NCBI RefSeq assembly: GCF_051903065.1
Contig: NZ_CP178438.1
Reading direction: 5' to 3' (one strand)
Origin: Escherichia coli
Lineage (GTDB): Bacteria > Pseudomonadota > Gammaproteobacteria > Enterobacterales > Enterobacteriaceae
DNA length: 64,000 bases
Positions 26,901 through 58,797 of the stretch are shown piece by piece. The position numbers and the translations under genes are program-made. The number at the start of each line of letters is the position of its first letter. Positions within the stretch are counted from its first letter, which is position 1. The notes beneath the pieces were generated by a model. It did no database searches. It saw only the letters and a list, made by a program, of their open reading frames with translations, and was not told the DNA's origin.

Positions 26901-29686
26901 TTTAACTCAGCAAACTTAGTGTCAGGCTTACGAGATTGCGCCATGAGCAGTGCCTTGGCACTACGCCAATCACTCTTAAACCATGCAAATAATCCCCCTT
27001 GCTGGATAACAGCAACGGCATGCGCGAGCATCTCTTGGGAAGGCAACTGGTCCAATTGATACAAAGTAGATAGACCATCTCTTAAAGGACGCAATGTTTC
27101 GATTTGACACATTAAGTCGCGCAATACTGCATCGATATCATCATCATCAAAAAGAGGATCTCGAACTCTAATAAGCTCAGTCGGTAAAGCACCCAGAATC
27201 GACAACAACTCAGAGCAGAATAGCAATCCAGCTTGCGAATCATCGATATACGAAGCAATACCATCTGGCAAAGCATTTTTGAAATCGTTTAATTGCGCAT
27301 AAATAGATGATAACTCATCATGAATTGATTGGATGGATTCAAGCCACCTGACCAAATCACGTAAAGTGAAATCCTCTGCTGCACCATATTTTTCCAGCTC
27401 TTCACGAGGAAAGTCACACGATTGTCCTTGTTCTAAAAGTCGTAGCTTTTGAGGCTCGATAACCTGGCTCAAGGCCACATAATGACCTTGTAGCAACTCG
27501 AACCTATCTAAATAGTGACGCACCCGTGCAATGGCATCGGGTGAATCTAGCTCACTAAGTGCTGGGAAATGCTCTGAACCACACAACACTGGAAGATTCG
27601 ACTGATCTTCTACCAATTGCTCAATATATTGAAGCGTATTAAGGCTTTCGCCTTCTAACGCCCACTTATCTACATATTCTTGATAGCTATGTTGAAAGTC
27701 GATAATTGATGTCTGCCAAGTTTGTAGCAAATCGACTATACGAGCGCTGTCAAACAATTGAATTTGTGTGTTATTCACACCGCTCCAAGGGTGCTCATAT
27801 ATTTCTGCATTAGCCCCCACCTGCTCACGAACCTCTTTGTAGATGCGGCTAAACTCTACTATTTGGTCACGCAGCCGTAATTGGGTCACTTTATCCAACT
27901 GCTTCCCGGAAAGGTTTTCGATATGAAGTGCTGTTGCATCAATATCTAATTTGTGACGATAACGGGTTGCACCACTCAAAATCTGATGGATCGTTTTGCC
28001 TGTTTGCGCCCATTGGTTATTGATCAATGCGGCATATTCATTGAGCTGCTGCTTAAGATCTTCATAACGCAAAATCTGAGCATCAATCTCTTCCATAGTA
28101 GGCATGGTCGCCTGACTCACCAAGCGAGCATTAATATCATCCAGCACCTTGCGCTTATGAGTTTTATGACTGTGCAACTCTAAGCAAAATTGACCTAGCC
28201 CCGCACGATCCAAGCGACGTTTGACGACCTCCAGTGCAGCCATCTTCTCTGCCACAAACAGGACTTTCTTACCGTTGAGCAGAGCTGCTGCAATCAAGTT
28301 GGTGATCGTTTGTGATTTGCCACTACCAGGAGGGCCCTCAATGACTAAGTTTTGACCACGGATAGCATCGATCAACGCACTGTGCTGCGAGCTATCCGCA
28401 TCATCGATTAGTGGAACCTTGTCATGAATATCAGGGTAACTATCGATGCAGTACTCATGCTGACCGAAGCCACCAGGTAAGCCGGAATTCTCTTGACCAC
28501 AGCTCTGACTGGTGAAAAAGCGACGAATTACTTCATGAGACAATATATTGCGCTTGTCACAAGGCCAGCGGGCAGGATCGAGGTCAAGATACATCATCAT
28601 CTTGCCAAAATTGAGCAAGCTAAGTGCACCATAACGTTTCACAGACCATTTAGGTTTGTGCTGCTCTACAACCTTCTTCACCGAAGCAAAATAAGACTCT
28701 GGAGTTTCCTCTTCATTGAACAAAGGAAGAGCGAGGCCAAAGTCAGCCTGAAGTTTTTCCTTCAAAGAGAGATTGGGCAAAATATCTTCACCCGTGTAAT
28801 AAAGTTGAAACTTGTAAAGACCATCCTTCGGATCTAATTTTCCTCGTTCACATCTCACCGGAATTGTAAATAACGGTGCATAACGTGCCTTTTCAGAGGA
28901 ATCGCTTTCATACCACTCAAGGAACCCTAACGCCAAATACAAGATGTTGGCGCCACTCTCCTCCAAAGCAGTTTGAGCCTTACCATAGATGGCGCGCAAA
29001 CAAGCTTCCAGTTCATTTGGATAAAGCAGAGCCTGTATCCGATTATCGTCATGAGAGGGATTGGAAGAAGATATACTAATCTCATTCCCAGCCTTTGCCT
29101 GTCGTTCAAAATCCTCAAGCCCTTCATAGCCTGCTAAGCAGCACGCCTCCTTCAACGCTGACAAAGCTATACCTTGATTAACGTATTCAGAACGAATCCC
29201 TGTTAATTTTCCATTCTGGCCTTGGGCATATTGCAAGATAAACTGATGGGCTTTTTCCAGCAACTCTCTATCTGAATCAGAAACAACCGTTTTATGGCTA
29301 TCTGGTAAATCAAAATCTGTACGGATTCCTAAGACGTGCGCCCAATCCTTAGCGCTAGGATGAGCTCTTAACTGTATATCTTTACCATCTGGCCCAACTT
29401 TGAGATAGCCATGCTCTAACAGCTGCGCTCTAGTTGGATCGGGCACAGGAGCAAATTCCATCGGGATTTCCGAGCAAAGGGTTTCATAAAGCTGTTCTGG
29501 TAATTCATCAACAATACGTAGTGAAGACCCTTTTTGAGTGATAGGGAAATTCAAAAGTCGATTTCGAGACGTAAGGTCCAATAACTTCTTACGCATAGCC
29601 TCGAGGGAAGTCAGAATAAAATCTGAGCCTCCTTGATTGAGTTCCTCTGCTGTAGAGGTATCTACAGTCGACATAATGTTCTCCAT
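23939..29686 (-). CDS. 1915-aa DUF4011 / SF1 (Upf1-like) helicase / Vsr-like (DUF559) endonuclease protein; resembles single-gene Hhe-type defence proteins
   Basis: N-terminus LLDLTSRNRLLNF; Walker A GPPGSGKSQT; Walker B and motif III DLVVMDEASQ...VVVGDPKQLPP; C-terminal GFFIDLAVKD...GIECDGAAYH...RDRDR. Confidence 0.75.
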   Translation of the reverse strand: MENIMSTVDTSTAEELNQGGSDFILTSLEAMRKKLLDLTSRNRLLNFPITQKGSSLRIVDELPEQLYETLCSEIPMEFAPVPDPTRAQLLEHGYLKVGPDGKDIQLRAHPSAKDWAHVLGIRTDFDLPDSHKTVVSDSDRELLEKAHQFILQYAQGQNGKLTGIRSEYVNQGIALSALKEACCLAGYEGLEDFERQAKAGNEISISSSNPSHDDNRIQALLYPNELEACLRAIYGKAQTALEESGANILYLALGFLEWYESDSSEKARYAPLFTIPVRCERGKLDPKDGLYKFQLYYTGEDILPNLSLKEKLQADFGLALPLFNEEETPESYFASVKKVVEQHKPKWSVKRYGALSLLNFGKMMMYLDLDPARWPCDKRNILSHEVIRRFFTSQSCGQENSGLPGGFGQHEYCIDSYPDIHDKVPLIDDADSSQHSALIDAIRGQNLVIEGPPGSGKSQTITNLIAAALLNGKKVLFVAEKMAALEVVKRRLDRAGLGQFCLELHSHKTHKRKVLDDINARLVSQATMPTMEEIDAQILRYEDLKQQLNEYAALINNQWAQTGKTIHQILSGATRYRHKLDIDATALHIENLSGKQLDKVTQLRLRDQIVEFSRIYKEVREQVGANAEIYEHPWSGVNNTQIQLFDSARIVDLLQTWQTSIIDFQHSYQEYVDKWALEGESLNTLQYIEQLVEDQSNLPVLCGSEHFPALSELDSPDAIARVRHYLDRFELLQGHYVALSQVIEPQKLRLLEQGQSCDFPREELEKYGAAEDFTLRDLVRWLESIQSIHDELSSIYAQLNDFKNALPDGIASYIDDSQAGLLFCSELLSILGALPTELIRVRDPLFDDDDIDAVLRDLMCQIETLRPLRDGLSTLYQLDQLPSQEMLAHAVAVIQQGGLFAWFKSDWRSAKALLMAQSRKPDTKFAELKRCSADLLKYSELLQRFEQSDFGNQLGNAFRGLDTDCEQLMLLRDWYKKVRACYGIGFGKRVAIGSGLFNLDGEIIKGVHLIEKSQISSRLMTLVKRVEHEAKLLPRISSLLEEHASWLGEQGVLMQSYRQVRNTLIALQGWFINPDISLEQMTHSSEILQNINDLQISLENDSLQLGAFLQLTPLACGAYKNNQLTLDTINDTLNFAEQLVDKINCVSLATQIRHLASGSDYDLLCRDGGEIVSKWNEQIKNAELYALETKLERSQWLKSTDGSLNTLIERNERAIQQPRWLNGWVNFIRCYEQMHENGLQRIWSAVLAGSLPIEKVELGLALAIHDQLAREVIHIHPELMRVSGSQRNALQKSFKDYDKKLIELQRQRIAAKIACRNIPEGNSGGKKSEYTELALIKNELGKKTRHIPIRQLVNRACNALVAIKPCFMMGPMSAAHYLEPGRMEFDLVVMDEASQVKPEDALGVIARGKQLVVVGDPKQLPPTSFFDRSADGEDDDDAAALSDTDSILDAALPLFPMRRLRWHYRSRHEKLIAYSNRHFYNSDLVIFPSPNAESPEYGIKFTYVSKGRFSNQHNIEEAQAVAEAVLHHAQHRPGESLGVVAMSSKQRDQIERAIDELRRNRPEFNDAIDGLYAMEEPLFVKNLENVQGDERDVIFISFTYGPSEHGGKVYQRFGPINSDVGWRRLNVLFTRSKKRMHVFSSMRSEDVLTSEISKLGVISLKGFLQFAESGKLDSLTTHTGRAPDSDFEVAVMEALNHAGFECEPQVGVAGFFIDLAVKDPGCPGRYLMGIECDGAAYHSAKSARDRDRLRQEVLERLGWRISRIWSTDWFSNPDEVLSPIIRKLHELKTLAPDVVVPSYEYVETIESSAEVASDSIDSLMPNLGLKEQLKYFATHVIEVELPNVDADRRLLRPAMLEALLEHQPLSRSEFVERIPHYLRQATDVYEAQRFLDRVLALIDGAEAEANDAAFESELA

Positions 29687-29860
29687 TTCTTAGGGTCCAC
29701 AAGTAAAACGTTTTATGCTGATGCATCACAAAAAGACCGCAGTAAACTGCTGCAAAGAAGAGGAGATTTTTAGTCTCCCCTTCTTTATCAATCAGATCAT
29801 ACAATCAACTTAACGCCCATTAGTTGATAGCAGCCAAATTTCATAAACAGATTCAATCCG

Positions 29861-31903
29861 TTATTGCTGAATTTGATTGGATAGTAAGACCTGCAACATA
29901 TCTTGTTGATGCACAGCTATCTCATCTTCCAGCCAACGACCTTTATCTTTCATCAGCCGAATCATAGCAAGCAATTTAAGACTATCAGTCTGGTTATTGG
30001 CAAGGCTTGCTTCAAAGTGCTCCTGCTTCTGTTGCGGCTGGAAGTTACTCAAGCGCGAGTTCTTGCTGTGGCTGATAAGGCAAAGGTTGCCAAACGAATG
30101 GAGTGCACTCTGCTCAACCGGTTTATAGCCATCCATCGGATGCTGGGGTGAGAAGTGCTCCACCGAGCTGCGGAAAGTGAACTCAAAGGAGCCAGCAACT
30201 TTGTCGCTATTCCGATCTCGTACCCACAGCAGATAGTCGAGGAAGTTGAAGACAAAGTTGTTCTCGATATGACCGAAGCGAAGTTTGGATGTAATCACCT
30301 TGTGCCAACTCTCATCCACATTGATGGCGGGCAACAGGGCGTTATCAAGGTAGAGCATCTGGTAATAGGAAGCCCCTTCACCAGGCGCCAAAAAGCGCTG
30401 GAAGACAAAGCGGCGAGCCTGACTCTCCAGATAGGACAGATAAGCCCCGGCATCCACCGGTTGATCAGGGTGACAATTGTCGAACAGATATCTCAGTGCA
30501 CCATTCAGCCAATGTTTGTAAACCAGGGTCGGGGTCGACACATGAAACGCCGACAGCAACATCAGGACCCGCCGGTTAACACCAGAGAAACCATTCTCAT
30601 TTTCATCCTTGTCAAAGGTATTGATGTAACTGACGCTCTTTTCCGAATACCAGTGCAGCCGCTTCAGACTCCAACTATCCTTGCCATCGGCAAACTCGCG
30701 CTTGATGATGAACTGATCAAACAGATACTTGCTCTTTAACAGGCCATAGATAAAACGCTGAACTGCCGCTACTGGATCCGGTTGCCTTATCACTCGCAGC
30801 TCAAACTGATCGACCAGTTGTTTATCATCAAGCGGCACCCCCTCCGTATCACCCGGGTCGCGGCTCACGAGTCGCAGCACATGGAGCAAGAAGTTGGAGA
30901 AGTTGATGACGCTGTTAAAGCGCTCGGAGCCTGCGCTCTCCTCCTCCACCGTCTGCTCACCATCAAGCTTGTCATCCTGCAAAATGGCCAACAAGGTGCG
31001 CCCTTGGCTACCGGCAGCTGCACGGCTTTTATCGGCAGCGTCGGCCGTGTTTGGGGATCCTAGCAGATCAAGCAGATGGGCAAAGTCACGGGGCACAAAC
31101 TGACCCCAGTCGCTCTCACCAAACAGACGGTGGCGCTCTTGCGGGGTAAAGCCGTACTGGATATAGCGCTCCATATTGGCGCAGGCATCCCATACCCGGG
31201 TCAGGATATGAATACTTTGGCGACGATGCTCTTCCTCGGGTATCTGGTTCAGCGTCTCCATCAGCCGCGCCTTGATCACTTCATGCTTTTCCAACTGCTC
31301 GCCGCGATTGTTCATCGCCTCGAAGAAGTGATTGAGATCGGTATCCTTGGGTACTTCGATACGAGAGATCTGCACATGCTTGAAGAGGTAGTCGCAAAAG
31401 GTCGTCAGTTTAGCCCCTACCAAACCAAGATCCGCCATTGCCTTGCCAATCAGCTCAAAACCGTTCACCAAACCTTCATTGAAGGTACTCCCCCGCAAAT
31501 CGTAGGGGGCAACACCCTGCCATAAGCGCTCGAAGGTATGGCTCGATATCGGGCGACTCTCAAAAGCGAGGTTGATGGTCTGATACCAGCTCATATCCAC
31601 CGAATCTATCGCGTGATGTTTGAGCCAATTGGCCAGCAGAGAGAGGGTAGTAAAGCGCTGCTGGCCATCGATTACCTCGAAACTGCCATCGTCCCGGGCA
31701 AACACCACCAGGGTGCCGATATAGTAGGTTTGCGGCCCCTTACCACTGACCAATTTTTGCTGATAATCCAGCACATCCTGCAGCAGCTGGGTGATCTCTC
31801 CCTCACCCCAGGCATAGTTGCGCTGGTACATGGGCACCAGATAGCGGGCGCGATCTTCAAGCAGTGCACGAATGGAAAAGGGGCGAACGCCTGCATCATT
31901 CAT
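29861..31903 (-). CDS. GmrSD-like protein (N-terminal DUF262, C-terminal DUF1524 His-Me finger nuclease), putative type IV restriction component
   Basis: DUF262 motifs [16 protein letters not shown] and DGQQR; DUF1524 motifs VEHFSPQHP and [17 protein letters not shown]; 8-bp overlap with the upstream gene. Confidence 0.75.
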
Positions 31904-33350
31904 AATATTTCATCTCCCGAAACAGCCCGACCAGCTCATCTTCGGCACCATTGCGATTGTTCTTGTTCTCTCGACTGCTCATGCTAGGCAAAGGGAAGCC
32001 GTGCAGATCTCCCGGCAGACGAGCATCACGAATGGCACGGATCAGATTGTGCTCCAGCACATAGTTATCCATGGTTGCCAACTGCACTACCTGCTGGCGG
32101 ATGCGGCAGCGATAGGCCCAGATAAAGCACTTCTCGATGGCCAGTGACAGCCCTTGGCTGCCGAACTTGTCGATATAGAAGATCAGGGCGCAGTCGAACA
32201 TGGCCCGCACATAACGATCCCCGGTGCGGTGGCGACGCTCGTAGCTGCCCAGGGTCGATAGCACCTTGCTGGCCATCGGTGTCAGCGTTTCGCCGAGCAG
32301 GGTGGCAGATTGCGCCTTGCCGGAATCAGACTCCTCGGCCACGATGGCGGCCACCCGCGTCTGGTAGTACTCGGCCATCTCGAAAAAGCGCCGACCATTG
32401 ATGATCATCTGGTCGAGATGAAAGGGAAACGTCATGTACTGGCCGTCAATCTTGCGCTGGTACTGGCGGTTGTACTCATCGACAAAGTGGTGGGCGATGC
32501 GCAGCGACTCCACGTAAGGATAATGCCCTACCCGATCTAGGTTGACCCCCTTGAAGAGATCCACCTCCCCCTTGCCAAAGTAGCGGGCCGACTTGCCCTC
32601 GGCCCACTGGCGTACCCGATAGAGATAGAGGGCGAACAGATTGGCCAGCTCGTCGCTTGGCAGGCGCTCCCAATGGGCGACCGCCTCGGCCTTGAGATTG
32701 GCCTCATGACCGGCAAACTCGCGCAGGTGAAATGCCTTGAGCAGATCGTGAGGAGCCAGATCGCGCCCCCGGGCATTTTGCGAATCGAAGAACTGGAACG
32801 CCTCCGAGATATCCTGCAGTACAAAGCAGACCACCTGACAGCGGTTGAGCAGAAAGTCAATTTGCTGCTCGTCAAACTCAGGGCGGGCCACCAGCCGACG
32901 CAACTCCAGATAGTTGCGTCTGAGGTTGAACTCCGAATCCCGGCTGGGGAAGCGCTGGCGCTGCATAAACGCATCGATAGGTCCACGCAAGACCTGCAAT
33001 TGCTCACGCAGATCCTGACGTTGAAACCGGATACTCTTCTCTTTGCCACTGCGATTTTCGTTATCCAGCACCTCGATCAGCGCCTTGACGGTCAACATCA
33101 GGGTCAGGGTGCGTTGCTGACCATCGACGATATCAAGCATCTCGCCCTGCTCACTATCGGTGTGCTGATGAAACACCACCGAGCCCAGCCGGTAGGCGCT
33201 CTTGTCCTGATGGGTTGCCAAATCGGTAAAGAGATCCGAGATATTCTTGGAGCCCCAGCGGTAAGGTCGCTGATAGCTTGGGATGGCCAGTTGGGGAATG
33301 GCCAGCAACTGGCGTACCGACTGCACTTGATTATTAATGCTCTCCATCAT
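31896..33350 (-). CDS. DUF262 (ParB/Srx-like NTPase) protein, GmrS-like, no recognisable nuclease domain
   Basis: Motifs [22 protein letters not shown] and DGQQRTLTL; translationally coupled to the DUF262-DUF1524 gene. Confidence 0.7.
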
Positions 33351-33371: not shown

Positions 33372-33973
<602 letters not shown>

Positions 33974-34004
33974 GACAAATGAGCCCATTGGAATAAGTTA
34001 GAAA

Positions 34005-34760
34005 CTACATATCTGCCAACAACATCCCAGCCATACCATCCAGTCGCTTCTTAACCTTTTCCCAGCCCGGCATAACCTGCCCCATCAGACGGTAAAACTC
34101 CTCGCTGTGGTTGTGCTCAGCCACATGGCATAACTCATGTAGCAAAACATAATCGATACATTCTGAGGATGCCTTAACCAGCCATGGATTCAGGGTCAGA
34201 CAGCCTTTTGCTGAACAGTTGCCCCATTGCGTTTGCATCGCCCGCAGACGTATCGGAGGACGCTCACTGACCCAAAGGGTCTGCGGAATCAGTAAATCAA
34301 GCCTGCGCTGAAAAACATCTCTGGCACGTTCCCGATACCATTCAGCCAGCAAGGCTTTAATCTTTTCTGCCGATTTGTGTCTGACAGTCACTTCCAGACG
34401 CCCACGCAACATTTTCACTCGTTGCGGCACAGTAGCGTCTTCTGTCACTTTCAACTGATATTGCTTACCGAGATAATAATGGCTTTCTCCGCTGACATAC
34501 TGACGCGGAACAATGTGTATCTGTTGCTCCCTGAAATCACGCAGTTGCTGGTATATCCAGCGCCCACGTTTTTTCAGCGCAGACAATACCTCGTGCTCCG
34601 GTGTTTCAGGCGGTACAGAGGCCACAACCCGGCAGTCCGGATAAACCTTAATGAGCACCCTGCCCTTTACGACCTGACGCGGAACACACTGTACGACGAT
34701 GACCTCATCACCATAGACAATGCGTAACGCTTTCATTGATGGCGATTCTTTTTCACTCAT
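34005..34760 (-). CDS. DUF45/M48-family zinc metallopeptidase (YgjP-like), often linked to type I R-M loci
   Basis: 251-aa ORF with HExxH motif HELCHVAEHNH; ATGA overlap with the hsdR stop. Confidence 0.7.
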   Translation of the reverse strand: MSEKESPSMKALRIVYGDEVIVVQCVPRQVVKGRVLIKVYPDCRVVASVPPETPEHEVLSALKKRGRWIYQQLRDFREQQIHIVPRQYVSGESHYYLGKQYQLKVTEDATVPQRVKMLRGRLEVTVRHKSAEKIKALLAEWYRERARDVFQRRLDLLIPQTLWVSERPPIRLRAMQTQWGNCSAKGCLTLNPWLVKASSECIDYVLLHELCHVAEHNHSEEFYRLMGQVMPGWEKVKKRLDGMAGMLLADM

Positions 34761-37700
34761 GATTTCATCAAACCAACGCGCAGTATCTGGATGATGGTTT
34801 CCACAATACGGTTAACCTGATTCATTCCGGCACCAATTTCCCGGCAGGCCGTAAACAGCAGTGGTAGCAGACTTGTCTTAACGACTTTCTCAATGTCCTG
34901 GGGGTTCAGGGAGTTTTCTGCCACCGCTCTAACGATAATGCTGTCCACTTCAAAAGCCAGCTTCGTCCACTTATCCTGCACCTGAACGTCTTTTACCACA
35001 AAAACCTCAGGTAGCTCTTTTTTAAATACACCGTAATACGCCTGAGCATGCTTGTTTACCGCCAGTGCATCCGGGATATCGCTGAGCTTACGGGCTTCAA
35101 CCTGTTCTTCAAACTCACGGAATAAGAGGTACTGCTTAAGTGGATGGTCGAACAGTTTTTCAGCCTCTTCGATTGCCATACGCAGGAGTCTGGAAAAGGC
35201 CTCCTGAGCATACGGATCATCACGCAGCTCCTGCTCAATCATCTTCGTCACACGGGTTTTAATGATGTCGGTTTCATTGCGGGTTTTATTGTTGTCCCAC
35301 TCTTCGGGCTTTTCGCTCTTACCCATTTTACCGACTTCATACACGCCATCCGGTTCACGAACCTCAACGCCGGTGACATGCTTATCCAGCAGTTTTTTCA
35401 CCTGCTCGGCGTAGTCGTCATAATTGACCTGCTCTCCACTGACCTGCATCGCCCACTGGCGCAGGCTGGACATCTGTTTTACGGTTTCTTTATAGAGGTT
35501 TCGGTCTTGTTCCGTAAAGCTCTTGTCGGTGAAGAAGGTGGCGGACTGCAGTGCCACTTTCAGGCATCCGGCAAAGGCCGTTAACGCCTCGAAGAAATCA
35601 TCACGGGTTTTCTGATGGATATCGACCATCTCTCCGTCACGTTCTTCCATTTTAGGCACCAGTACCGCACGTAACTGCTCAGTATCATTTTTGTTTTTGA
35701 CACCAGCAAATATGGCCCACAGCTGGTTATACAGATGCGGCAGGCGCTTGTATTCAGAGCTCATGGCGCTGTACAGCCCGTCAATATCTTTGATGTCGTA
35801 TCCGCCCTGAGTTCGGGAGGCGAGGTCCTGATATTTGCCGATAGTCGTGTCCAGCTCAGCCAGAATACCGCGATAATCAATCAGCAGACCGAACTTTTTT
35901 AGTGGATGCAGTCGGTTCACCCGCGCAATCGCCTGGATAAGGTTGTGGGACTTAAGCGGCTTGTCGATATACAGCACGGTATTCTTCGGCTCATCAAACC
36001 CGGTGAGCAGTTTATCAACGACTATCAGCAATTTGAGCTTCTCATCGGTATCGAAACGACTGATGATATTGCGGGTATACACAGACTCATCCTGCGTGCC
36101 GACGTTATCTTTCCACCATTTCGTCACTTCCGGCAGTTTGCTTTCATCCACCTCAGTATTCCCTTCCCGGGTATCCGGCGGGCTGATAACTACAGCTGAC
36201 TCAAACAACCCGGCTTCATCAAGATACTTTTTATATTTGATGGCGGAAATCTTGCTGTCGCAGGCAAGCTGGCCTTTCAGCCCCTCATCAATATTCTTCG
36301 AGAAGTGCGTGGCGATATCGAGTGCGATCAGACGGATGCGATCATCTGCACTATAAACCTCACCTTTACGGGCATATTTACGCTTAAGGTCGGCTTTTTG
36401 CGCTTCGCTTAACCCATCGGTAATACGATCAAACCAGGCATCTATTGCCCGATCGTTAACCTCAAGGTCGGGAATACGTTCTTCATACAGCAAAGGTGTA
36501 ACGGCTTTATCTTCTACCGCTCGCTGCATGGTATAAGCGTGGACAATCGGTCCGAATTTATTGGTGGTCTTATCTTCTTTTAGCAATGGCGTACCAGTAA
36601 ATGCTACAAAGGCGGCGTTCGGCAGTGCCAGTTTCATTCGCACATGGTTCTCACCACCCTGGCTACGGTGTCCTTCATCAATCAGAACGATGATATCGGG
36701 GCTGGTATTGACGCATTCAGGAAGTTTTGTCGCTGAATTAAATTTCTGGATTAGGGTGAAAATGATGCGTTCTTTACCGGAGCCAATCTGTTTCGCCAGC
36801 ATCTGCCCGGATGTCGCCATTGCATTGGCTTTGTCTTTTTTCCCGGCCAACTCGCCGCCGGATGCAAAGGTACTGCTGAGCTGTTCTTCAAGATCGATAC
36901 GGTCCGTCACCACCACGATACGACACCGCTTCAGGCTGTCATGAAGGATCAGCGCCTTGCTGAGGAACACCATGGTGTACGATTTGCCAGAGCCGGTGGT
37001 ATGCCAGATAACACCACCTTCCCTGCCCCCATCGGGTCTGCGGGTACTGATGCGTTCCAGCAGTCTTTTAATCCCGAACACCTGCTGATAGCGGGCAACA
37101 ATTTTTCCGGTCTTTTTATCAAACAGGGTGAAGAAGCGGGTCATCTCCAGCAGACGTTCCGGCGAAAGCAGACTGATGAGCAGCTTATCCTGCCCGCTGA
37201 CAGCCAGTTCCCCCCCGGCGATTAACTGCTGATACCAGTTGAGATCGCCAACAGGACGATGCTCAAATAACGCATCAATTTGTTCAGTCGATAAAGGATG
37301 GTTGCGCAGGGCATACATCTGCGCATCGGTAATATCCTCTTCGCGCCATGCCGCCCAGAATTTCATTGGCGTATGGCATGTACCGTAGCGCCCGTCATGA
37401 CCGTTAATCGAAAGTAATAACTGGCTGTAGACAAACAGCTGCGGGATTTCATCGTTGAACTGGTTGCGGATACTCTGGGATATCCCCTCGTCAATGGTTG
37501 GCCCTTTCTTGCCATGACCAGCCGGGCTTTTCGCTTCAATAACAGCCAGCGGGATACCATTAACAAAGCAGACAATATCTGGCCTCCGGGTTTCAACACC
37601 ACCTGACCGCAATACCGTAAATTCTTCAGTAAAATGGAACTGGTTATTTTCCGGATGTTCCCAGTCGATCAGCGCAATGGTGGGGTTGACCTTCTTGCCA

Positions 37701-38044
37701 TCGACAAACTCCGTGACGGCGATACCGTAGAGCAGATGGTTATACATCCGCTCATTGGCTTTGAGCAGCCCTTCATTCAGCGCCGGAGAACAGACCTGTG
37801 ATATCAGGTTATCCAGTGCTTTTTCCGATAACTGGCAGGTTTTGCCACCCGCCATAAAGGAACGCTTCGACAGCTCTTCACGCAGAACCGGACGCAGCAC
37901 CACCTCATCCTGTTTATAGCCCCGGTAATCCATAATCTGTTTCGGAGATAAAAACGCCCAGCCGAGGCTGGTCAGTAACGTCAGTGCCGGAATTTTGGCG
38001 CTGTATTCTTCCTGGAATTTTGGCGTGTACGTCTGGTTCATCAT
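34757..38044 (-). CDS. hsdR: type I restriction enzyme R subunit
   Basis: 1095-aa ORF MMNQTYTPKFQEEYSAKIPALTLLTSLGWAF; helicase motifs HTTGSGKSYTMVF and VLIDEGHRSQ; operon with hsdM and hsdS. Confidence 0.9.
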   Translation of the reverse strand: MMNQTYTPKFQEEYSAKIPALTLLTSLGWAFLSPKQIMDYRGYKQDEVVLRPVLREELSKRSFMAGGKTCQLSEKALDNLISQVCSPALNEGLLKANERMYNHLLYGIAVTEFVDGKKVNPTIALIDWEHPENNQFHFTEEFTVLRSGGVETRRPDIVCFVNGIPLAVIEAKSPAGHGKKGPTIDEGISQSIRNQFNDEIPQLFVYSQLLLSINGHDGRYGTCHTPMKFWAAWREEDITDAQMYALRNHPLSTEQIDALFEHRPVGDLNWYQQLIAGGELAVSGQDKLLISLLSPERLLEMTRFFTLFDKKTGKIVARYQQVFGIKRLLERISTRRPDGGREGGVIWHTTGSGKSYTMVFLSKALILHDSLKRCRIVVVTDRIDLEEQLSSTFASGGELAGKKDKANAMATSGQMLAKQIGSGKERIIFTLIQKFNSATKLPECVNTSPDIIVLIDEGHRSQGGENHVRMKLALPNAAFVAFTGTPLLKEDKTTNKFGPIVHAYTMQRAVEDKAVTPLLYEERIPDLEVNDRAIDAWFDRITDGLSEAQKADLKRKYARKGEVYSADDRIRLIALDIATHFSKNIDEGLKGQLACDSKISAIKYKKYLDEAGLFESAVVISPPDTREGNTEVDESKLPEVTKWWKDNVGTQDESVYTRNIISRFDTDEKLKLLIVVDKLLTGFDEPKNTVLYIDKPLKSHNLIQAIARVNRLHPLKKFGLLIDYRGILAELDTTIGKYQDLASRTQGGYDIKDIDGLYSAMSSEYKRLPHLYNQLWAIFAGVKNKNDTEQLRAVLVPKMEERDGEMVDIHQKTRDDFFEALTAFAGCLKVALQSATFFTDKSFTEQDRNLYKETVKQMSSLRQWAMQVSGEQVNYDDYAEQVKKLLDKHVTGVEVREPDGVYEVGKMGKSEKPEEWDNNKTRNETDIIKTRVTKMIEQELRDDPYAQEAFSRLLRMAIEEAEKLFDHPLKQYLLFREFEEQVEARKLSDIPDALAVNKHAQAYYGVFKKELPEVFVVKDVQVQDKWTKLAFEVDSIIVRAVAENSLNPQDIEKVVKTSLLPLLFTACREIGAGMNQVNRIVETIIQILRVGLMKS

Positions 38045-38093
38045 TAATCCTTTTCTTTCTGGCGCTACTCGCTACTGGTCACATGAAGATTCA

Positions 38094-38777
38094 TCAATGC
38101 AGACAGCACCTCTTAAATTTTTTACCGCTGCCACACGGACACGGGTCATTTCGCCCGGGCATGTTTTCTGCCCCCTTCACTGGAACAGGCCGGGATGATG
38201 CCTCTGACATTCTCACTGACAACCAGTACTGATAAAGTGCCAGTGCAGCAGGCTGAATAAGGGAAATACTTTTCTCAAACTGCTCTCCGGTCATTTTCTC
38301 AAGTACAGGAAAATTCTTCTCCACGCCATGAAGAGCGATCACTTCCAGAGAAGGCCGTAACTCACCGGGAAGACCAGACCAGTCATCCAGTGACTTTCCT
38401 TTCATATAACCAAAACACCACTCTTCCACAATGGTATATTTTTCCCCCTTTACCTCACGCTCATTGAAAATCGGTTCAAACTGTTCAGGGGCCTCATACA
38501 GGCAGCCAGCGATATCGTTCATATGCTGAAAACACAGCCCCACAAAACGCGTCATCTCTTTTTCGGTGGTCCAGCGAGGGTGGTAATCACCTCGCCCCCA
38601 GATAGCACTGAGCCAGGTATTAGGGGAAATCGTATTCGGGCCAGAGACAATCGCTGTCAGAAAGCCATCCAGCTCAGAGAAACAGAGCACAGAATCATCA
38701 TTGCCGTATTTCAGCAACACCTCTTCCAGCCAGTCGATTTCCCGGTCAATCAGCGGCCCGCTTTTCGTCAGTTTCAT
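38094..38777 (-). CDS. YecA-like UPF0149 / SEC-C motif protein, paralogue of chromosomal yecA, inside the hsd operon
   Basis: 227-aa ORF MKLTKSGPLIDREIDWLEEVLLKYG... aligns along its length with YecA (20434-21099), including [11 protein letters not shown] and the terminal [21 protein letters not shown]; start overlaps hsdS stop, 49 bp before hsdR. Confidence 0.85.
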   Translation of the reverse strand: MKLTKSGPLIDREIDWLEEVLLKYGNDDSVLCFSELDGFLTAIVSGPNTISPNTWLSAIWGRGDYHPRWTTEKEMTRFVGLCFQHMNDIAGCLYEAPEQFEPIFNEREVKGEKYTIVEEWCFGYMKGKSLDDWSGLPGELRPSLEVIALHGVEKNFPVLEKMTGEQFEKSISLIQPAALALYQYWLSVRMSEASSRPVPVKGAENMPGRNDPCPCGSGKKFKRCCLH

Positions 38778-40012
38778 TCGGCAACCGCCTCATCGACCTT
38801 AACACGACGTTTGCCAGTCAGTAGCTGTTGCATCAGGGCTTTTTTCTCATCTCTCAGGCAGGCGAGTTTTTTCTCCAGCGTGGAGATTTCGGCATCGGCG
38901 ACGGACAGGACGGCGGCGATTTTTTGTTGTTCTCTTATACTGGGTAAGTCTAGTTCAAACTCTTTAACCATTCCGGCGTTTAGGTTGGACTGTGTACCTT
39001 GCTGGCCTTGTAGTTTTATTTTTTCTTTTAATGATGTAAGATAGAAATATAAAAACTCATAATTTAAACAATCTTTTGGTCTAATACCCAAGATTGCCTG
39101 CGAAGATGTTAAATTTACAGCAGCAATGCTGCATTCACCTATAGAAGCATACATAGCATAAAGAACCGAGTTTTTTGGATATATTCTTGCGGATGAACTG
39201 TTCAATCCTAATTCAGTCAGATATTTTTCAGTTGTAGCAATCCACTTTCCATTAGATGTCATATCAGAAATAGATACCCATGGGATATTCCCGCCATAAT
39301 ACTCTTCAACCGTTGATTTCGGAGTACCTCCACTGTTCATATCGGCTATCGCACCCAGTTTTACTCTCTTCCACTCCCCACTAAACCTCACCCCATTCTC
39401 ATCCAGCAAGCGTTTCTTCCCGGTAAGTAATTGCTGCATCAGGGCTTTTTTCTGCTGCTGACTATTGGCGAGCAGCTTTTCCGTCACTGAAATCGCGTTA
39501 TCCCAGGTTGACAAGATTTTGGCTATTTTCTTTTGTTCCGCCAGTGGGGGGAGTAATACAGGAAAACCGCAAACATCATCACGTGTAATATTAGGGTCTT
39601 TACGACTACTTGCCGCAAATTTCTTCCATAATTTTACATTCCCGTTTAAGTAATTCAGGATATATGCTGGTTCTGCTTTATCACGATCGAGTATAAGACC
39701 GGATAATGCTTGGTTTATTGCTGCCGGTATAGTGAGAAGTCCAGTTCTTCCGATCTGGTTAAAGCCTCCATACATCGCTACTAAAACAGTACCAACAGGA
39801 AATACAGAGCAAGATGTTTCTAAAAGGGCTGTGTCAGTAATTTTCTCATCAGTTGAGATAATTTCACCGTTATTTAGGTCTAATGTCTTTACCCATGGAG
39901 TACCAGCAGTAGAAAAATAACGCTCTCCCTCAGCCCTCAGCGGAGTAGATCCAGATTTAATTTTTGCTATGTCCGATAATTTGACATGTCTCCAGCCAGG
40001 TTTGAGCTTCAT
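38774..40012 (-). CDS. hsdS: type I restriction-modification specificity subunit
   Basis: 412-aa ORF with two target-recognition halves and conserved HsdS core LLTGK(K/R)RL; overlaps hsdM stop. Confidence 0.88.
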   Translation of the reverse strand: MKLKPGWRHVKLSDIAKIKSGSTPLRAEGERYFSTAGTPWVKTLDLNNGEIISTDEKITDTALLETSCSVFPVGTVLVAMYGGFNQIGRTGLLTIPAAINQALSGLILDRDKAEPAYILNYLNGNVKLWKKFAASSRKDPNITRDDVCGFPVLLPPLAEQKKIAKILSTWDNAISVTEKLLANSQQQKKALMQQLLTGKKRLLDENGVRFSGEWKRVKLGAIADMNSGGTPKSTVEEYYGGNIPWVSISDMTSNGKWIATTEKYLTELGLNSSSARIYPKNSVLYAMYASIGECSIAAVNLTSSQAILGIRPKDCLNYEFLYFYLTSLKEKIKLQGQQGTQSNLNAGMVKEFELDLPSIREQQKIAAVLSVADAEISTLEKKLACLRDEKKALMQQLLTGKRRVKVDEAVAE

Positions 40013-41565
40013 AAGCTATCCTCTTGCATACTGAAGTTTTCTCTTTCACCATAACCCAACTCCTTCAGATAACCCGCCATCTCTGTTTCGAGTTTTGACA
40101 GTTCCACTTTCAATTGCTCACGTTCGGCACGCACAGCCAGCAAGTCAATCTCGTCTTCTTCCTCAAAGGTATCGACATAGCGCGGAATATTGAGGTTGTA
40201 ATCGTTGTCCTGAATTTCCTTCAGGCTGGCGAGATAGGCGTATTTCTCGACGTTATCGCCATCACGGTAGGTCTTGACGATTTTCTTAATGTTTTCTTCG
40301 CTAAGCTGGTTCTGGTTTTTACCTGCCTTGAATTCACGGCTGGCATCGATAAACAGCACCTTATCATCAACTTTCTGCTTTTTGAAAATCAGAATCGCAG
40401 CCGGAATCCCCGTACCGTAGAACAGTTTTTCCGGCAGACCAATTACCGCATCCAGCAAATTTTCGTCGATCAGTTTCTGGCGAATTTTACCTTCGCTGGA
40501 GCCACGGAAAAGCACACCGTGTGGCACAACTACGCCCATACGGCCAGTTCCCGGTTTCAGGGTTTCGATCATATGCGAGATAAAAGCGTAATCTCCTTTA
40601 GTCTTCGGCGGTACACCGCGACGAAAACGGCCAAACTTATCGTTCTCAGCCTCGTCATGGCCCCACTTATCCAGGCTGAACGGTGGGTTAGCGGTCACGA
40701 TATCAAACAGCATCAGGTCGCCATTTTTATCGAGCAGTTTCGGGTTACGAATGGTATCGCCCCACTCGATTTTATGGTTGTCTTCGCCGTGCAGGAACAT
40801 GTTCATTTTCGCCAGCGACCACGTGGAGCCAATCGCTTCCTGACCAAACAACGCATAATTACGGCTGTTATGTCCGGAGACAATTTTACGTCCGCACTTC
40901 ATCAATAACGAACCAGAGCCGCAGGCCGGATCGCAGATGGTATCACCCGGTTGCGGATCAAGCAGTTCAGCAATCAGGTCTGAAACTTCTGGTGGGGTAT
41001 AGAATTCCCCGGCTTTCTGCCCACCGCTGGCGGCAAAGTTTTTGATCAGATATTCGTAGGCATTACCGATAACGTCCAGCGTACCTACACGGCTTGGCTT
41101 CAGGTTGAGATCTTCACCGGCGAAGTCTTCCAGCAACTGACGCAGGATGGTGTTCTTCTGTTTTTCTTCACCCAAGCGGTCAGTGTTAAACGAAATATCC
41201 TGGAACACGCTTTTCCCGGCATCTTTCAGTTTGGTTCCGTTGGCTTCTTCGATTGCATGCAGAGCCTGATCGATACGCTCACCGTTACCCGGCTCATGGC
41301 GGCGTTCGTACAGCGCATAAAAGCTGGCACTTTTTGGCAGTACAAAACGCTCGTTGGCCATCATCGCTTCAATCAGTTCCGGCGCATCGCCATACTGTTC
41401 TTTGTATTCGTCATAGTGATCCTGCCAGACATCTGAAATGTACTTGAGGAACAGCATGGTAAGGATAAAGTCTTTATAGGTATCAGCACTGATGGTGCCA
41501 CGGAACGTATCACACGCGGCCCACAGGGCTTTGTTGATCGTGTCCTGACTGATTTTGTCGTTCAT
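40009..41565 (-). CDS. hsdM: type I restriction-modification DNA methyltransferase subunit (N6-adenine)
   Basis: 518-aa ORF MNDKISQDTINKALWAACDTFRG; motif I DPACGSGSLL; motif IV NPPF in TANPPFSLDKWG. Confidence 0.92.
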   Translation of the reverse strand: MNDKISQDTINKALWAACDTFRGTISADTYKDFILTMLFLKYISDVWQDHYDEYKEQYGDAPELIEAMMANERFVLPKSASFYALYERRHEPGNGERIDQALHAIEEANGTKLKDAGKSVFQDISFNTDRLGEEKQKNTILRQLLEDFAGEDLNLKPSRVGTLDVIGNAYEYLIKNFAASGGQKAGEFYTPPEVSDLIAELLDPQPGDTICDPACGSGSLLMKCGRKIVSGHNSRNYALFGQEAIGSTWSLAKMNMFLHGEDNHKIEWGDTIRNPKLLDKNGDLMLFDIVTANPPFSLDKWGHDEAENDKFGRFRRGVPPKTKGDYAFISHMIETLKPGTGRMGVVVPHGVLFRGSSEGKIRQKLIDENLLDAVIGLPEKLFYGTGIPAAILIFKKQKVDDKVLFIDASREFKAGKNQNQLSEENIKKIVKTYRDGDNVEKYAYLASLKEIQDNDYNLNIPRYVDTFEEEDEIDLLAVRAEREQLKVELSKLETEMAGYLKELGYGERENFSMQEDSL

Positions 41566-41868
41566 GAATCATCCTGGTCTGAAGAAAAAGCTAGCGATGC
41601 AGGGCTTTGCATCTTAAAAATTGCGGTAAATGATACCGTAAGATGCCTCCCCTGACACGCCAATATCGCAGCATTCAGGTTTGCATCATCCCCGTAATAT
41701 CGACATGAGACAGACTGACACAACCTGGCTCGTCACTCGCTAAAAACCAATTATCTTAGTAAGATAGCATCCATATTAGCCATGGTGTAAAACTGCCGTT
41801 GGGGTAATGATGATCCATATATCACCCGTTCTGGTGTGTGGAGCTGACATGATCCATAATCGGCAACG

Positions 41869-43104
41869 TTGATGCCCTTTGATAGTAATGATGACCGTCA
41901 ATGTGATTCCCCTGCTGACTGGAGGTCTCCGGATAGAATGAGTATTGCCAACTGCGCTATCGGCCCACTTTATGATGAGCAAATAAAAAAAACACTTATG
42001 TATGCTGACCATAAATTCAAGCGGCTAATGAATACACGAATGTCGTTACTCGAACATTTATCACCCCACTATGACTTATCTTCCATGTTCAGCTATGAGT
42101 TGGAGGGAAGAGTTTTTCGGATTAAATTGATCAAGCCTGAGATTAAATTATCTCGCCAGCAGTTGATCTTCTCCTCACTCTTTTTAGAGCATGATTTTCT
42201 AAAAGAATATAAAAAACACATCTCAAATACTCTACAAAAAACAATCAAACAGTGCATTAAAAAACACAAACAAAAAATCAAAATCGAGCCTTCTATTTTA
42301 GATTACATATCAGCGTCACCCCGCAATACGTCGAGTTATGTATTACATGAGATAGTTTTTGAATCTAAACATTGCGATGAAATTCGCAATATTAAAAATG
42401 ATATATTGCTTGATGAACTAACGTTGAATGGCCGGATCACTAACATTTCAAAATACATTAAAAATAGTCAAGATAAAATCGTCGAACATATAGAGTTCTG
42501 CACTCATAAATTTGTCAATATAAGTCGTAAGAACCGGCACATTTTCAACACCACCACAATATCTGGCAGAAAACCTAACATCACTGGTGTTTTACTTTGC
42601 CTTTCAGAATTGATAAGCAACCTGCATATTTACCCAACTGAAATTAATAATATAAGCAATGCCATAATATTAAGCATTGCATACTCTGTACTTCAACATC
42701 TTCAATCCGGAAGAGAAACAGAAAAAACCAAAACCTCTCCAGCACTGGATTTTATCCCCACCATCATCGCACCTCATGTTTTCTACCTGGCGAAACGCGA
42801 AAAATCCTCTCAATATAAATACATTGAAAAAGAATATCTTCTCGGCCAGTTACTTATATTTTTGATGTATAAAACAGTTTACTACTCGATTCATAGCATC
42901 AGGGTAAGCCGTAAGCATTTCTATAATGATATAAAACCAAAATTAGTGACACTAAAAAAAGAAAGCTTATTAAGCACCAATTTCATGAAAAATCGAAGAG
43001 AGATTAGTGGTGAAGTCTTTGGTGATGTTGGTAGTATTGAGGCTGATTTTCGAGAAATCAGTACACTGATTCATCGGCGGAAGGCATTATTTATTTCCTT
43101 TTAA
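41869..43104 (+). CDS. hypothetical protein (AT-rich, Lys/Ile/Asn-rich); start codon uncertain
   Basis: 411-aa ORF in a low-GC block; no recognisable motif. Confidence 0.5.
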   Translation: MMPFDSNDDRQCDSPADWRSPDRMSIANCAIGPLYDEQIKKTLMYADHKFKRLMNTRMSLLEHLSPHYDLSSMFSYELEGRVFRIKLIKPEIKLSRQQLIFSSLFLEHDFLKEYKKHISNTLQKTIKQCIKKHKQKIKIEPSILDYISASPRNTSSYVLHEIVFESKHCDEIRNIKNDILLDELTLNGRITNISKYIKNSQDKIVEHIEFCTHKFVNISRKNRHIFNTTTISGRKPNITGVLLCLSELISNLHIYPTEINNISNAIILSIAYSVLQHLQSGRETEKTKTSPALDFIPTIIAPHVFYLAKREKSSQYKYIEKEYLLGQLLIFLMYKTVYYSIHSIRVSRKHFYNDIKPKLVTLKKESLLSTNFMKNRREISGEVFGDVGSIEADFREISTLIHRRKALFISF

Positions 43105-43610: not shown

Positions 43611-44741
43611 ATGTTCGAGAAAATGAAAAACAATGTAACCCGTATACCGGGGAATTTAACAAAACTTAATCAATACCAAAAAGACATTGATCACCTGTCT
43701 AAACTATTTTCTGAACAGCAATTACTGGAACTAATGACGACTACCGAATCCGATCAAATATTGCAAATGAAGCCTGCTGTAGATATTCTTCATGTACTAT
43801 CTCCATCAGCATCTACTGCTAAGCATATCAATTTTTTTCAGCACGTCCCAGTGCTCGAACAATGGTTAAAAAAGGAGTGCACTGCCTTTAATTTACTGGC
43901 AGTACATTTCTATTCACAGCAATCCCGTAAAAATGTCATTCCGAAAGAAATCTGTATGCTACTGGATGCATTTATTAAAACTGAACTTTCATCTGCGGTT
44001 AATGGTAATAATAATGCCGAACTCCTTTCTTGTTTTCAAAACACGCTGGATAAAATGTGCAATACACTAACATTTATAGACCACACAGTTACGGAACAAT
44101 CAGGTCAAGTAGCAATGCTTGATTTCAGCGCAAAAATGCATGAATATACTGTTGAAATCAGGACCTTTTTGAAGTCTGAATACTGGCTAAACAAACTACC
44201 TAAGGATATTAATATTCCATCCATTGACCTATCCTGGCTTGTGTTTTGTTACTTTTGCTCTGAATATCTTTTTGTATTTATTCAAACAACGCTCAATACA
44301 ATGAAGGCAGGAAAAATCATTCGTGATAACTACCTTTATCATCCTAAAATGATTGCATTGATCATTTTATCTATGCTGCCTTATGAAGTCATTCATAACG
44401 ATGGATCACTGAGTGAGTTTAAAACGCCTTTAACCAGCCCTGATGAGTTCATAATCAAATCTATTTGCATTAAAGGTAAGCAAAACACTACAGGGCATAA
44501 AAAAGATATAGAACAATTGCTTCGTAAGACATATATCTATATTGCATTACTCTTAAACCCTGAGTGGGCACCATCTTCCAAGGAGTTGATTTCCTTTTTA
44601 TCAGGAAAGTCCACAGTGATAAGTGGTTCACTCAACTTCCAGTCAACCTCCAGTGGTCTGGGTGTTCAAACAAACAATATCACTCTTCTTAAGAATGAGG
44701 TTTACTTCGAAAAAATAGCGAACAAGATCATGAAACTGTAG
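43611..44741 (+). CDS. hypothetical protein (AT-rich)
   Basis: 376-aa ORF MFEKMKNNVTRIPGNLTKLNQYQ; same strand and composition as the preceding ORF; no recognisable motif. Confidence 0.55.
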   Translation: MFEKMKNNVTRIPGNLTKLNQYQKDIDHLSKLFSEQQLLELMTTTESDQILQMKPAVDILHVLSPSASTAKHINFFQHVPVLEQWLKKECTAFNLLAVHFYSQQSRKNVIPKEICMLLDAFIKTELSSAVNGNNNAELLSCFQNTLDKMCNTLTFIDHTVTEQSGQVAMLDFSAKMHEYTVEIRTFLKSEYWLNKLPKDINIPSIDLSWLVFCYFCSEYLFVFIQTTLNTMKAGKIIRDNYLYHPKMIALIILSMLPYEVIHNDGSLSEFKTPLTSPDEFIIKSICIKGKQNTTGHKKDIEQLLRKTYIYIALLLNPEWAPSSKELISFLSGKSTVISGSLNFQSTSSGLGVQTNNITLLKNEVYFEKIANKIMKL

Positions 44742-44884: not shown

Positions 44885-46021
44885 ATGCCTATTCTGGATC
44901 TGCGTTTCAGCAACAAATCACTTCACCAACTTCTACATCCCCTCACGGGTTGTCAGGAATACCGTGATATTCACTGCCAAAACCTGCGTGCTCTGGTGTA
45001 TCCCAATCGGATCACGCTGGCCTTTCGTGCCACTATAAACAATCAGCGTATATATGAAACCCTGGGTCAGTTCCCTCAGCTCTGCGTTGAGGATGCCCGT
45101 CAGCATGTGATGAAACTGCTTGCTGATAAAAATCGTCTTGCGGTTCAGTCCCGTCGATTCACTGTGGAACAGGCCATCAATGACCTGTGGCTACCGGATT
45201 TGCAGTTGTATAAAAAGAGTCCTCAGTCAGAGTTGTCAAAACTCAACCTCTACGTTCGCCCGTTCTGGGGCAAGCGGCAACTTCGCGACATCACGGCAGG
45301 AGAACTAGAACAATATGCTGCTGGCTTACGGGAAAAATTACGTCCGTCAACAGTAAACCGTATCCTCGCAATATTGTCCAAAATATGCTCTCTGGCAGTA
45401 CGTGCTGGATGGATCACGCATTCCCCGATGTCACATGTCCGCTATCTGAAAGAAAATAACATTCGCTATCGCACACTGTCAGCGACAGAAATCCCGCGCT
45501 TTATTGACGCGGCAACAGCGCTGCAAACACCGGCAGCTGATTCTATATTGCTTGCTCTTTATACGGGGATGCGTATTGGTGAGGTATGTACCCTGAAATG
45601 GGAGTACTGGCACCCGGATATGCATCAACTCATACTGCCTGATACAAAGTCCGGACACCCTTTCACCTGCCCACTTGCACCTCCAGCCATTGCAGTTGTC
45701 CAGTGCCAGCAGGACCTGATGCTCAGCAAAACTTACATTTTTCCACAACTAACCGACAATGTCCGCCCTCTGGCATATCCGCGTGCAACCTTTGCCCGTA
45801 TTTGTCGGGATGCCAACATTGATAACCTGCGGATGCATGACCTGCGCCGTACCTTTGCCACCCGGGTACTACAGGCGACCGGGGATATTGCAATCGCTTC
45901 CCATCTGCTAAATCACCATTCACTCACGGCGACCCGTCGCTACGCTTTTCACAATGCAGCGACATCACACGCAGTGGTTTCTCAGGTCATAGAAAGTTAT
46001 GACACAAAAATGAACCTATGA
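44885..46021 (+). CDS. tyrosine-type site-specific recombinase/integrase (P4-like); true start may lie upstream
   Basis: Catalytic region LYTGMRIGEV, MHDLRRTFATR (HxxR) and LNHHSLTATRRYA (Tyr). Confidence 0.85.
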   Translation: MPILDLRFSNKSLHQLLHPLTGCQEYRDIHCQNLRALVYPNRITLAFRATINNQRIYETLGQFPQLCVEDARQHVMKLLADKNRLAVQSRRFTVEQAINDLWLPDLQLYKKSPQSELSKLNLYVRPFWGKRQLRDITAGELEQYAAGLREKLRPSTVNRILAILSKICSLAVRAGWITHSPMSHVRYLKENNIRYRTLSATEIPRFIDAATALQTPAADSILLALYTGMRIGEVCTLKWEYWHPDMHQLILPDTKSGHPFTCPLAPPAIAVVQCQQDLMLSKTYIFPQLTDNVRPLAYPRATFARICRDANIDNLRMHDLRRTFATRVLQATGDIAIASHLLNHHSLTATRRYAFHNAATSHAVVSQVIESYDTKMNL

Positions 46022-48094: not shown

Positions 48095-48104
48095 GGAGTT
48101 AACT

Positions 48105-56406: not shown

Positions 56407-56436
56407 TCTCCATATTTATAGTTTGCTAAAAAGTAG

Positions 56437-58785: not shown

Positions 58786-58797
58786 TCGGGAAGAAAG

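Follow-up and report, generated by a model that had tools for sequence, protein, structure and literature searches.

The DNA analysed here is a 64,000-nt stretch of Escherichia coli 23CRST027, to which the region is 100% identical; it is called the window below, and all coordinates are positions in it. The minus strand of the window carries, at 34005-41565, five co-oriented and uninterrupted open reading frames (ORFs): hsdM, hsdS, a YecA-like gene, hsdR and a gene for a YgjP-like/DUF45 peptidase. They form a complete type I restriction-modification (R-M) gene set with intact catalytic motifs, and the locus belongs, as an uncharacterised member, to a known and widespread kind of type I R-M operon. 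With a probability of roughly 80%, we read it as an intact operon of a distinct, widely transferred family that has the fixed layout hsdM, hsdS, variable slot, hsdR and ygjP-like peptidase, and that is carried here on a pipolin.

The first gene, hsdM (41565-40009), encodes a 518-aa gamma-class N6-adenine methyltransferase subunit that matches PF02384 (N6_Mtase, 5.5e-107) and PF12161 (HsdM_N), scores 284 bits against TIGR00497 (cutoff 243), and has DPACGSG at residue 212 and NPPF at residue 293. The specificity subunit gene hsdS (40012-38774) encodes 412 residues, with PF01420 (Methylase_S) matching in two stretches and the repeat LMQQLLTGK at 191 and 393, so that two target-recognition domains (TRDs) are split by conserved repeats. 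It is followed by the YecA-like gene (38777-38094; 227 aa), which combines UPF0149 with a C-terminal SEC-C metal-binding motif. The restriction and translocase subunit gene hsdR (38044-34757; 1095 aa) has a start placed one codon later, at 38041, by the Prokaryotic Genome Annotation Pipeline (PGAP). Its product matches PF04313 (HSDR_N), PF18766 (SWI2_SNF2), PF04851 (ResIII), PF22679 (T1R_D3-like), TIGR00348 (461 bits) and the PADLOC model REase_I PDLC03041 (1374 bits). HsdR contains a PD-(D/E)xK nuclease motif (D156...E170-x-K172) and the superfamily 2 motifs TGSGKS at 350, DEGH at 456, FTGTP at 482 and QAIARVNR at 704. The last gene (34760-34005) encodes a 251-aa YgjP-like/DUF45 zinc metallopeptidase (PF01863, 6.7e-58) with HELCH at 208.

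Overlaps of 4 bp (ATGA), read in the sequence, join hsdM to hsdS, hsdS to the YecA-like gene and hsdR to the peptidase gene. The sole junction without an overlap lies between the YecA-like gene and hsdR, where a 49-bp spacer (38045-38093) holds an AAGGA ribosome-binding site; the sequence of this junction varies among operon variants that have no gene at this position, the YecA-like gene alone, or the YecA-like gene with a further protein. Judged by ORFs, motifs and the lengths of homologues (1090-1096 aa for HsdR, 243-258 aa for the peptidase), no frameshifts were seen in the five genes. The original prediction of a complete, co-oriented and translationally coupled operon is borne out by the intact ORFs, strong profile matches, motifs and three overlaps.

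Family placement and the hsdR-linked peptidase

Placement among the type I families was judged from the identity of HsdM and HsdR to the prototypes of types IA, IC and ID, as a proxy for subunit complementation. BLASTP finds no match between HsdR and EcoKI HsdR (type IA) at E<=1e-3, and HsdM is 26% identical to EcoKI HsdM. Against EcoR124I (type IC), HsdR aligns in three short motif patches only, with 119 bits in total and the C-terminal third unmatched, and HsdM scores 237 bits, lower than against other solved methylases that are not type IC. Identity to EcoMII of E. coli EC958 (type ID), whose HsdR is reported to be 92% identical to StySBLI HsdR, is 30% for HsdR and 31% for HsdM. Membership in types IA, IC and ID was rejected on this low or patchy identity, and by sequence the operon falls outside all three.

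A study of Klebsiella (PMC11223367) labels plasmid-borne type I systems on blaKPC plasmids as type IC. Its test plasmid, p187-2, carries the operon, which by sequence is not EcoR124-like, and the label may be misapplied; whether the study meant the p187-2 operon by this term could not be confirmed.

The gene after hsdR had been labelled a DUF45/M48 peptidase. The DUF45 part of this label stands, as PF01863 matches residues 35-241 with 196.6 bits against a gathering cutoff of 26. The M48 part does not: M48 proper (Ste24/HtpX) is recognised by an M48 profile together with a membrane-embedded architecture, a combination that this protein does not have, and "M48" is a label of convenience for what is a soluble YgjP-like minigluzincin. 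PGAP itself calls the protein an M48 or SprT-family metallopeptidase. Its fold is that of the minigluzincins; SPRTN/Wss1 come second, and a match to the anti-restriction protease ArdC was also seen. Its N-terminal ~160 residues find no counterpart among solved structures. E209, H212, E215 and H218 are invariant in 68 peptidase sequences. A profile search revealed no recognisable sensor domain.

One genome per species was scanned with an alignment of peptidase homologues, which gave 80 loci spanning Gamma-, Beta- and Alphaproteobacteria, Desulfuromonadales, Magnetococcales and Mariprofundaceae. In 77 of them, an HsdR homologue in the same orientation precedes the peptidase gene with a gap of -8 to +28 bp; its identity to 23CRST027 HsdR, over the best segment, is 52-96%. 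Of the other three loci, two are at the edge of a contig, and the third (L093) is a pseudogene with two stop codons and was rejected as a case of a peptidase without HsdR; the peptidase thus follows HsdR in every judgeable locus. The same order of HsdR and a YgjP-like gene is seen in six loci that were reached by way of YecA and independently of the peptidase, and every E. coli entry with this hsdR also lists the peptidase. The pair even persists in an E. coli locus (L006) from which IS1 has removed hsdM and hsdS. No YgjP-like peptidase gene is present in the EcoKI and EC958 type ID loci. The peptidase is therefore the fixed fourth gene of the operon and an essentially obligate partner of this HsdR family. 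Its earlier description as a known but functionally unexplained companion of type I systems agrees with this linkage, with the PGAP names and with the report on the RRDM island of enteropathogenic E. coli (EPEC) discussed below.

The hsdS-hsdR slot and the YecA-like gene

The gap between hsdS and hsdR could be scored in the 55 of the 80 species loci in which both genes were placed, and it is occupied in 51 of these. Its occupants belong to about 60 unrelated protein clusters, nearly all co-oriented with the operon, and are mostly known defence genes. They include RhuM, Abi_2, Schlafen AlbA_2 with an ATPase domain, KAP NTPases and HerA; a cyclase (SMODS with AGS_C) resembling those of cyclic-oligonucleotide-based antiphage signalling systems, with a SLATT_6 effector; AbiEii-like proteins and OLD-like ATPases with partners; and YhcG/DUF1016 and NucS-like nucleases, PD-(D/E)xK nucleases, an HD dGTPase-like protein, a nucleotide cyclase, NYN, DUF4357 and DUF6933. 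Several clusters have no Pfam match, among them the small partners at L083:5028-5672 and L040:5149-5631.

Four states of the operon backbone are found within E. coli: an empty slot (L005), the YecA-like gene alone (the window), the YecA-like gene followed by a gene for a 620-aa protein (L004), and the hsdR-peptidase remnant (L006). In the empty state, the YecA-like gene is absent, and hsdM, hsdS, hsdR and the peptidase gene are intact. Among 5426 complete E. coli genomes, 540 carry the hsdR and peptidase backbone (coverage at least 80%); 417, or ~77% of these, have the YecA-like gene and ~23% do not. The 620-aa protein (L004:7107-8969, strain ATCC 43886) is encoded in 199 E. coli genomes and has only a weak N-terminal cold-shock-domain match, with no match in PADLOC. 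A 594-aa protein in the same position (L010:3801-5585) has neither a Pfam nor a PADLOC match. The hsdS-hsdR gap is thus a variable cargo slot, and the YecA-like gene is one of its optional occupants. The slot is a rich, compact and easily mined site for accessory and new defence genes.

The YecA-like protein matches PF03695 (UPF0149; 1.1e-28, 101 bits), PF02810 (SEC-C; 3.9e-10, 39.8 bits) and the NCBIfam model PRK10396 (359 bits against a cutoff of 149). These matches identify it as a member of the YecA family: UPF0149 makes up the N-terminal part, and at the C-terminus stands a SecA-like metal-binding motif that is almost identical to the metal-binding domains of SecA and YchJ. Searches of Pfam, NCBIfam and PADLOC profiles revealed no nuclease, toxin or NTPase domain in the protein. 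PADLOC assigns it to the defence candidate PDC-S12 (1.9e-99, 330 bits); a literature search found no experimental report of PDC-S12 anti-phage activity. A match to this model does not distinguish the operon copy from core YecA, and genome surveys that report PDC-S12 may count housekeeping yecA.

At the protein level, the operon copy is 57% identical to core YecA, encoded 17 kb away at 20434-21099, and megablast finds no DNA match between the two genes. Homologues that are at least 75% identical and whose contexts were checked stand after hsdS or an hsdS remnant, and core enterobacterial YecAs reach at most 60%. The operon-linked allele also occurs on Klebsiella plasmids and in Enterobacter and other genomes. 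A separate Aeromonas clade, with 72-87% identity internally and ~45% to the operon copy, is likewise linked to R-M, with a Schlafen-ATPase, MoxR with VWA, or RhuM as second cargo; copies in Aliidiomarina and Pseudomonas also lie in the slot. All nine non-enterobacterial YecA-type genes whose context was checked are linked to an R-M operon or island. Intact YecA-like genes are found beside hsdS fragments or decayed R-M genes in Providencia (L007-L009) and Microbulbifer (L099), and in a defence island in Thiomicrorhabdus (L100).

In a neighbour-joining tree, built from a small sample and without support values, the enterobacterial R-M-linked clade neighbours core enterobacterial YecA, and the Aeromonas clade branches elsewhere. 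As a lead only, this suggests that YecA may have been recruited into R-M operons more than once. On a metagenomic contig, two YecA-like genes ~2 kb apart (L011:1527-2207 and 4087-4629), 69% and 46% identical to the operon copy, stand in a context other than R-M.

Distribution and carrier element

The whole operon has matches in 654 of the 5426 complete E. coli genomes and on 385 plasmids, of which 360 are from Klebsiella and 365 are conjugative, at ~96.5% identity. Given these matches and the prior annotation of all five genes by PGAP, the sequence is not new. The full-length hsdS allele is rare, being present in 3/5426 E. coli genomes; its 3' 779 nt, which make up the TRD2 half, are common to many genomes, and TRD1 is not. 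HsdS joins a rare TRD1 to a common TRD2. The strain-specific methylation specificity that had been proposed for this operon is accordingly plausible, and with this locus E. coli gains a further uncharacterised type I specificity.

On the blaKPC IncFII plasmid p187-2, the operon adjoins the same Hhe and DUF262 genes as in the window (p187-2 locus 1-4141). Because these genes flank the operon in both places, a block of ~17 kb is taken to be common to the plasmids and the 23CRST027 pipolin.

According to the annotation of the identical record, the island that holds the operon lies between core yecA and a tRNA-Leu/Cys/Gly cluster. It contains a PolB-type polymerase gene (~48104-50704; so named by PGAP, with no Pfam match), two integrase genes (44885-46021 and ~56435-57634), a DUF2787 gene (~54628-55062), Hhe, two DUF262/GmrSD-like genes and insertion sequence (IS) remnants. 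Direct repeats of ~180 nt are found at 21218-21400, 23532-23712 and 58624-58804, the last of which overlaps tRNA-Leu, and they bound an island of ~35 kb (23532-58804). Published pipolins have the same core gene set and insert between pgsA and yecA, and type I R-M and PDC-S12 are among the defence genes swapped between pipolins and other mobile elements (PMC11551731). Since the core gene set, insertion site and direct repeats all agree with published pipolins, we identify the operon as part of the cargo of a pipolin, ~35 kb long, that is inserted at tRNA-Leu. Two features go beyond the original prediction: the operon is mobile, being carried by a pipolin in 23CRST027 and by IncF plasmids in Klebsiella, and its yecA-like gene is optional in a variable slot.

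The presence of three copies of the attachment repeat implies a second, small and degraded element at 21.3-23.6 kb. Adjoining the operon at ~23939-33350 are Hhe (1911 aa, DUF4011 with an MTES_1575 nuclease) and two overlapping DUF262/GmrSD-like genes; a GmrSD-like pair of matching domain composition directly follows the peptidase gene in another locus (L013). The Hhe, DUF262 and R-M block looks like a defence cassette that moves as a unit. Between the peptidase gene and the DUF262 pair lie fragments of IS1 (InsA-like) and of an IS3-type integrase core (33372-33918), and the identical scar is present in E. coli ATCC 43886. Divergent from hsdM are two hypothetical genes of low GC content (34-37%) at 41869-43104 and 43611-44741, which have no Pfam or PADLOC match and are kept beside the operon in three E. 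coli slot variants (L004, L005 and the window). Unrelated to the operon is a C0465 small RNA at 3000-3075, in a chemotaxis gene region (Rfam RF00116, 105 bits).

Proposed function, alternatives and known systems

In type I systems, HsdM2-HsdS methylates a bipartite target; HsdR joins to form R2M2S, which undergoes ATP-driven translocation along unmodified DNA and cuts it. The peptidase could add to this scheme a built-in protease that acts on HsdR or on DNA-engaged R-M complexes. It would then provide restriction alleviation independent of the host, as ClpXP or Lon do for other type I systems, and would make it safe for the operon to become established in a new host. We give this target assignment, which draws on gene linkage and fold, about one chance in three. 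Among the genes of the operon, it is hsdR to which the peptidase is linked, as opposed to hsdM, hsdS or the cargo; the two are translationally coupled, and the peptidase fold resembles that of proteases that clear proteins from DNA. In addition, other type I systems need HsdR proteolysis, for which a mobile operon cannot rely on its host. Such proteolysis is described for ClpXP in restriction alleviation of E. coli types IA and IB (PMC11109961) and for Lon/AsrA control of HsdR in Pseudomonas aeruginosa (bioRxiv 2024.10.21.619520).

The YecA-like protein is most likely an accessory adaptor or sensor that is independent of basic R-M, since its gene is optional and survives in decayed loci. It would keep the SEC-C motif by which YecA binds ribosomes and SecB and would not be needed for R-M as such. 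A bolder proposal combines both genes: the system would have four components, with the peptidase clearing HsdR or stalled R-M complexes from resident DNA, and YecA-type proteins (UPF0149 with SEC-C) may primarily be accessories of R-M operons, the housekeeping enterobacterial YecA being a domesticated copy. We regard this combination as speculative and rather unlikely.

Several points weigh against the functional picture drawn so far. Methylation and ATP-dependent restriction by the 34005-41565 operon are predicted functions. The case for HsdR as the peptidase target comes from linkage and fold, and the known HsdR proteases are the host enzymes ClpXP and Lon. In the literature searched, neither the peptidase nor the YecA-like protein was the subject of an experiment in the context of R-M. 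SprT-like and WLM Pfam matches of the peptidase fall slightly under their gathering thresholds. E. coli YgjP is reported to have a weak nucleotide pyrophosphatase activity, so the family may not be a protease family at all. The PDC-S12 hidden Markov model ranks core E. coli YecA above the operon copy (364 against 330 bits), and the PDC-S12 call is for this reason not evidence of a defence function. Almost without exception, the YecA-like gene comes directly after hsdS and overlaps it by 4 bp, even where further cargo follows; this constancy fits a closer association with the M-S module than would be expected of free cargo. Finally, a promoter and terminator scan of 33600-42000 returned sites no more numerous than in shuffled sequence.

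The position of the YecA-like gene is the main attraction of a view in which its product is a dedicated chaperone or regulator of R-M, either an AscA/YecA-like holdase for new Hsd subunits or a YgfB/MtvS-like binder of the transcription machinery that times hsdR. In 11 of 13 contexts, the gene begins at most a few bases away from where hsdS ends, YecA/AscA is reported to be a holdase chaperone that binds SecB and ribosomes via its metal-binding motif (bioRxiv 2020.07.21.215244), and UPF0149 relatives bind AlpA and the RNA polymerase beta-prime subunit, one of them regulating a CRISPR-Cas locus. A dedicated role nevertheless fits poorly with the E. coli backbones that lack the gene and keep hsdM, hsdS, hsdR and the peptidase intact, with the other genes that fill the slot in most species of the 80-locus sample, and with the intact YecA-like genes of Providencia, Microbulbifer and Thiomicrorhabdus, where the R-M genes have decayed. 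We consider it an unlikely account, but one worth keeping in view. The proximity of core yecA, the first chromosomal gene beside the integration site, might also suggest that the operon copy arose from it by local duplication. This nearness is explained by the tRNA-Leu attachment site of the pipolin, and the idea is effectively refuted by the 57% protein identity, the lack of a DNA match and the occurrence of the operon-linked allele on plasmids and in other genera; its probability is close to negligible.

For the peptidase, the alternative is a second-line defence role, as a PrrC-like abortive-infection effector freed when R-M is blocked or as a protease that destroys anti-restriction proteins of the Ocr/ArdA type. 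R-M loci are known to house guard and effector genes such as PrrC and DarTG, and this operon family is packed with them. The peptidase, unlike the cargo, never varies and never leaves hsdR, which suits a core subunit better than an add-on. It also has no recognisable sensor domain, and where it persists with HsdR after the loss of hsdM and hsdS, a trigger based on R-M inhibition could not work. We hold this role to be improbable. Still less probable is that the operon is silent in 23CRST027, or active as a methylase only, and adds no restriction barrier. In favour of silence, the non-coding region at 41566-41868, the presumed promoter site, contains a single weak sigma-70-like match (41658-41630), and promoter signal here does not exceed chance. 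No gene for an RptR-type regulator, as found in the EPEC relative, occurs among the ORFs at the operon, its upstream region included, and IS remnants lie immediately downstream. On the other side, all catalytic motifs are intact without frameshifts, hundreds of genomes and plasmids retain operons that are nearly identical, and an EPEC island of the same layout protects against phage, with the share of DarTG not separated out.

Should the peptidase control HsdR, type I systems would have a first example of an operon that itself solves the problem of self-restriction and establishment, and such self-contained alleviation could explain the free movement of the family among plasmids, pipolins and distant Proteobacteria. 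Hundreds of conjugative plasmids of Klebsiella carry the operon, blaKPC IncF plasmids among them, so that its specificity and control bear on plasmid spread. The family also offers unusually clean comparative material for testing the peptidase and YecA-like genes.

Among the closest known systems are those on IncFII conjugative plasmids of Klebsiella pneumoniae (such as p187-2, NZ_CP025468.1; pKP048-type, NC_014312.1), which carry the same five genes at ~96.5% identity over 93% of the length. They differ in TRD1 of hsdS, and hence in predicted specificity, and in their carrier, a conjugative plasmid as opposed to a chromosomal pipolin. The RRDM island of EPEC E2348/69 has the order rptR-hsdM-hsdS-darT-darG-hsdR-M48, and gives phage protection; the passages searched make no statement on the role of M48 (PMC12255303). 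By this published description, it resembles the 23CRST027 operon in that hsdS and hsdR are separated by accessory genes and hsdR is followed by a gene annotated as M48, but its slot holds DarTG2 and it has an upstream RptR repressor, whereas the slot here holds a YecA paralogue and RptR is absent.

EcoprrI (type IC) likewise has an accessory gene embedded in a type I locus, that of PrrC, which lies between hsdS and hsdR; EcoprrI is not known to have a YgjP-like peptidase. PrrC has a nuclease effector domain and is triggered by T4 Stp, whereas the YecA-like protein has no recognisable effector domain. The YecA-like protein was therefore rejected as a PrrC-type guard or effector: its slot position fits, but the toxic effector domain is absent.

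The model for a coupled peptidase comes from EcoKI with ClpXP and from the P. aeruginosa iREN system with Lon-AsrA, in which HsdR is controlled post-translationally by proteolysis and self-cutting is avoided. ClpXP and Lon are host-encoded and ATP-dependent, whereas the candidate here is a small, operon-encoded zinc peptidase with a putative HsdR target. In comparison with the minigluzincins proabylysin and selecase and with SPRTN/Wss1, this peptidase has an extra N-terminal region of ~160 residues. Core E. coli YecA (AscA) shares UPF0149 and a near-identical SEC-C motif with the operon copy; the core protein is chromosomally encoded and a reported Sec-pathway chaperone, whereas the operon copy belongs to a separate clade, with identities of at least 75%, that is linked to R-M.

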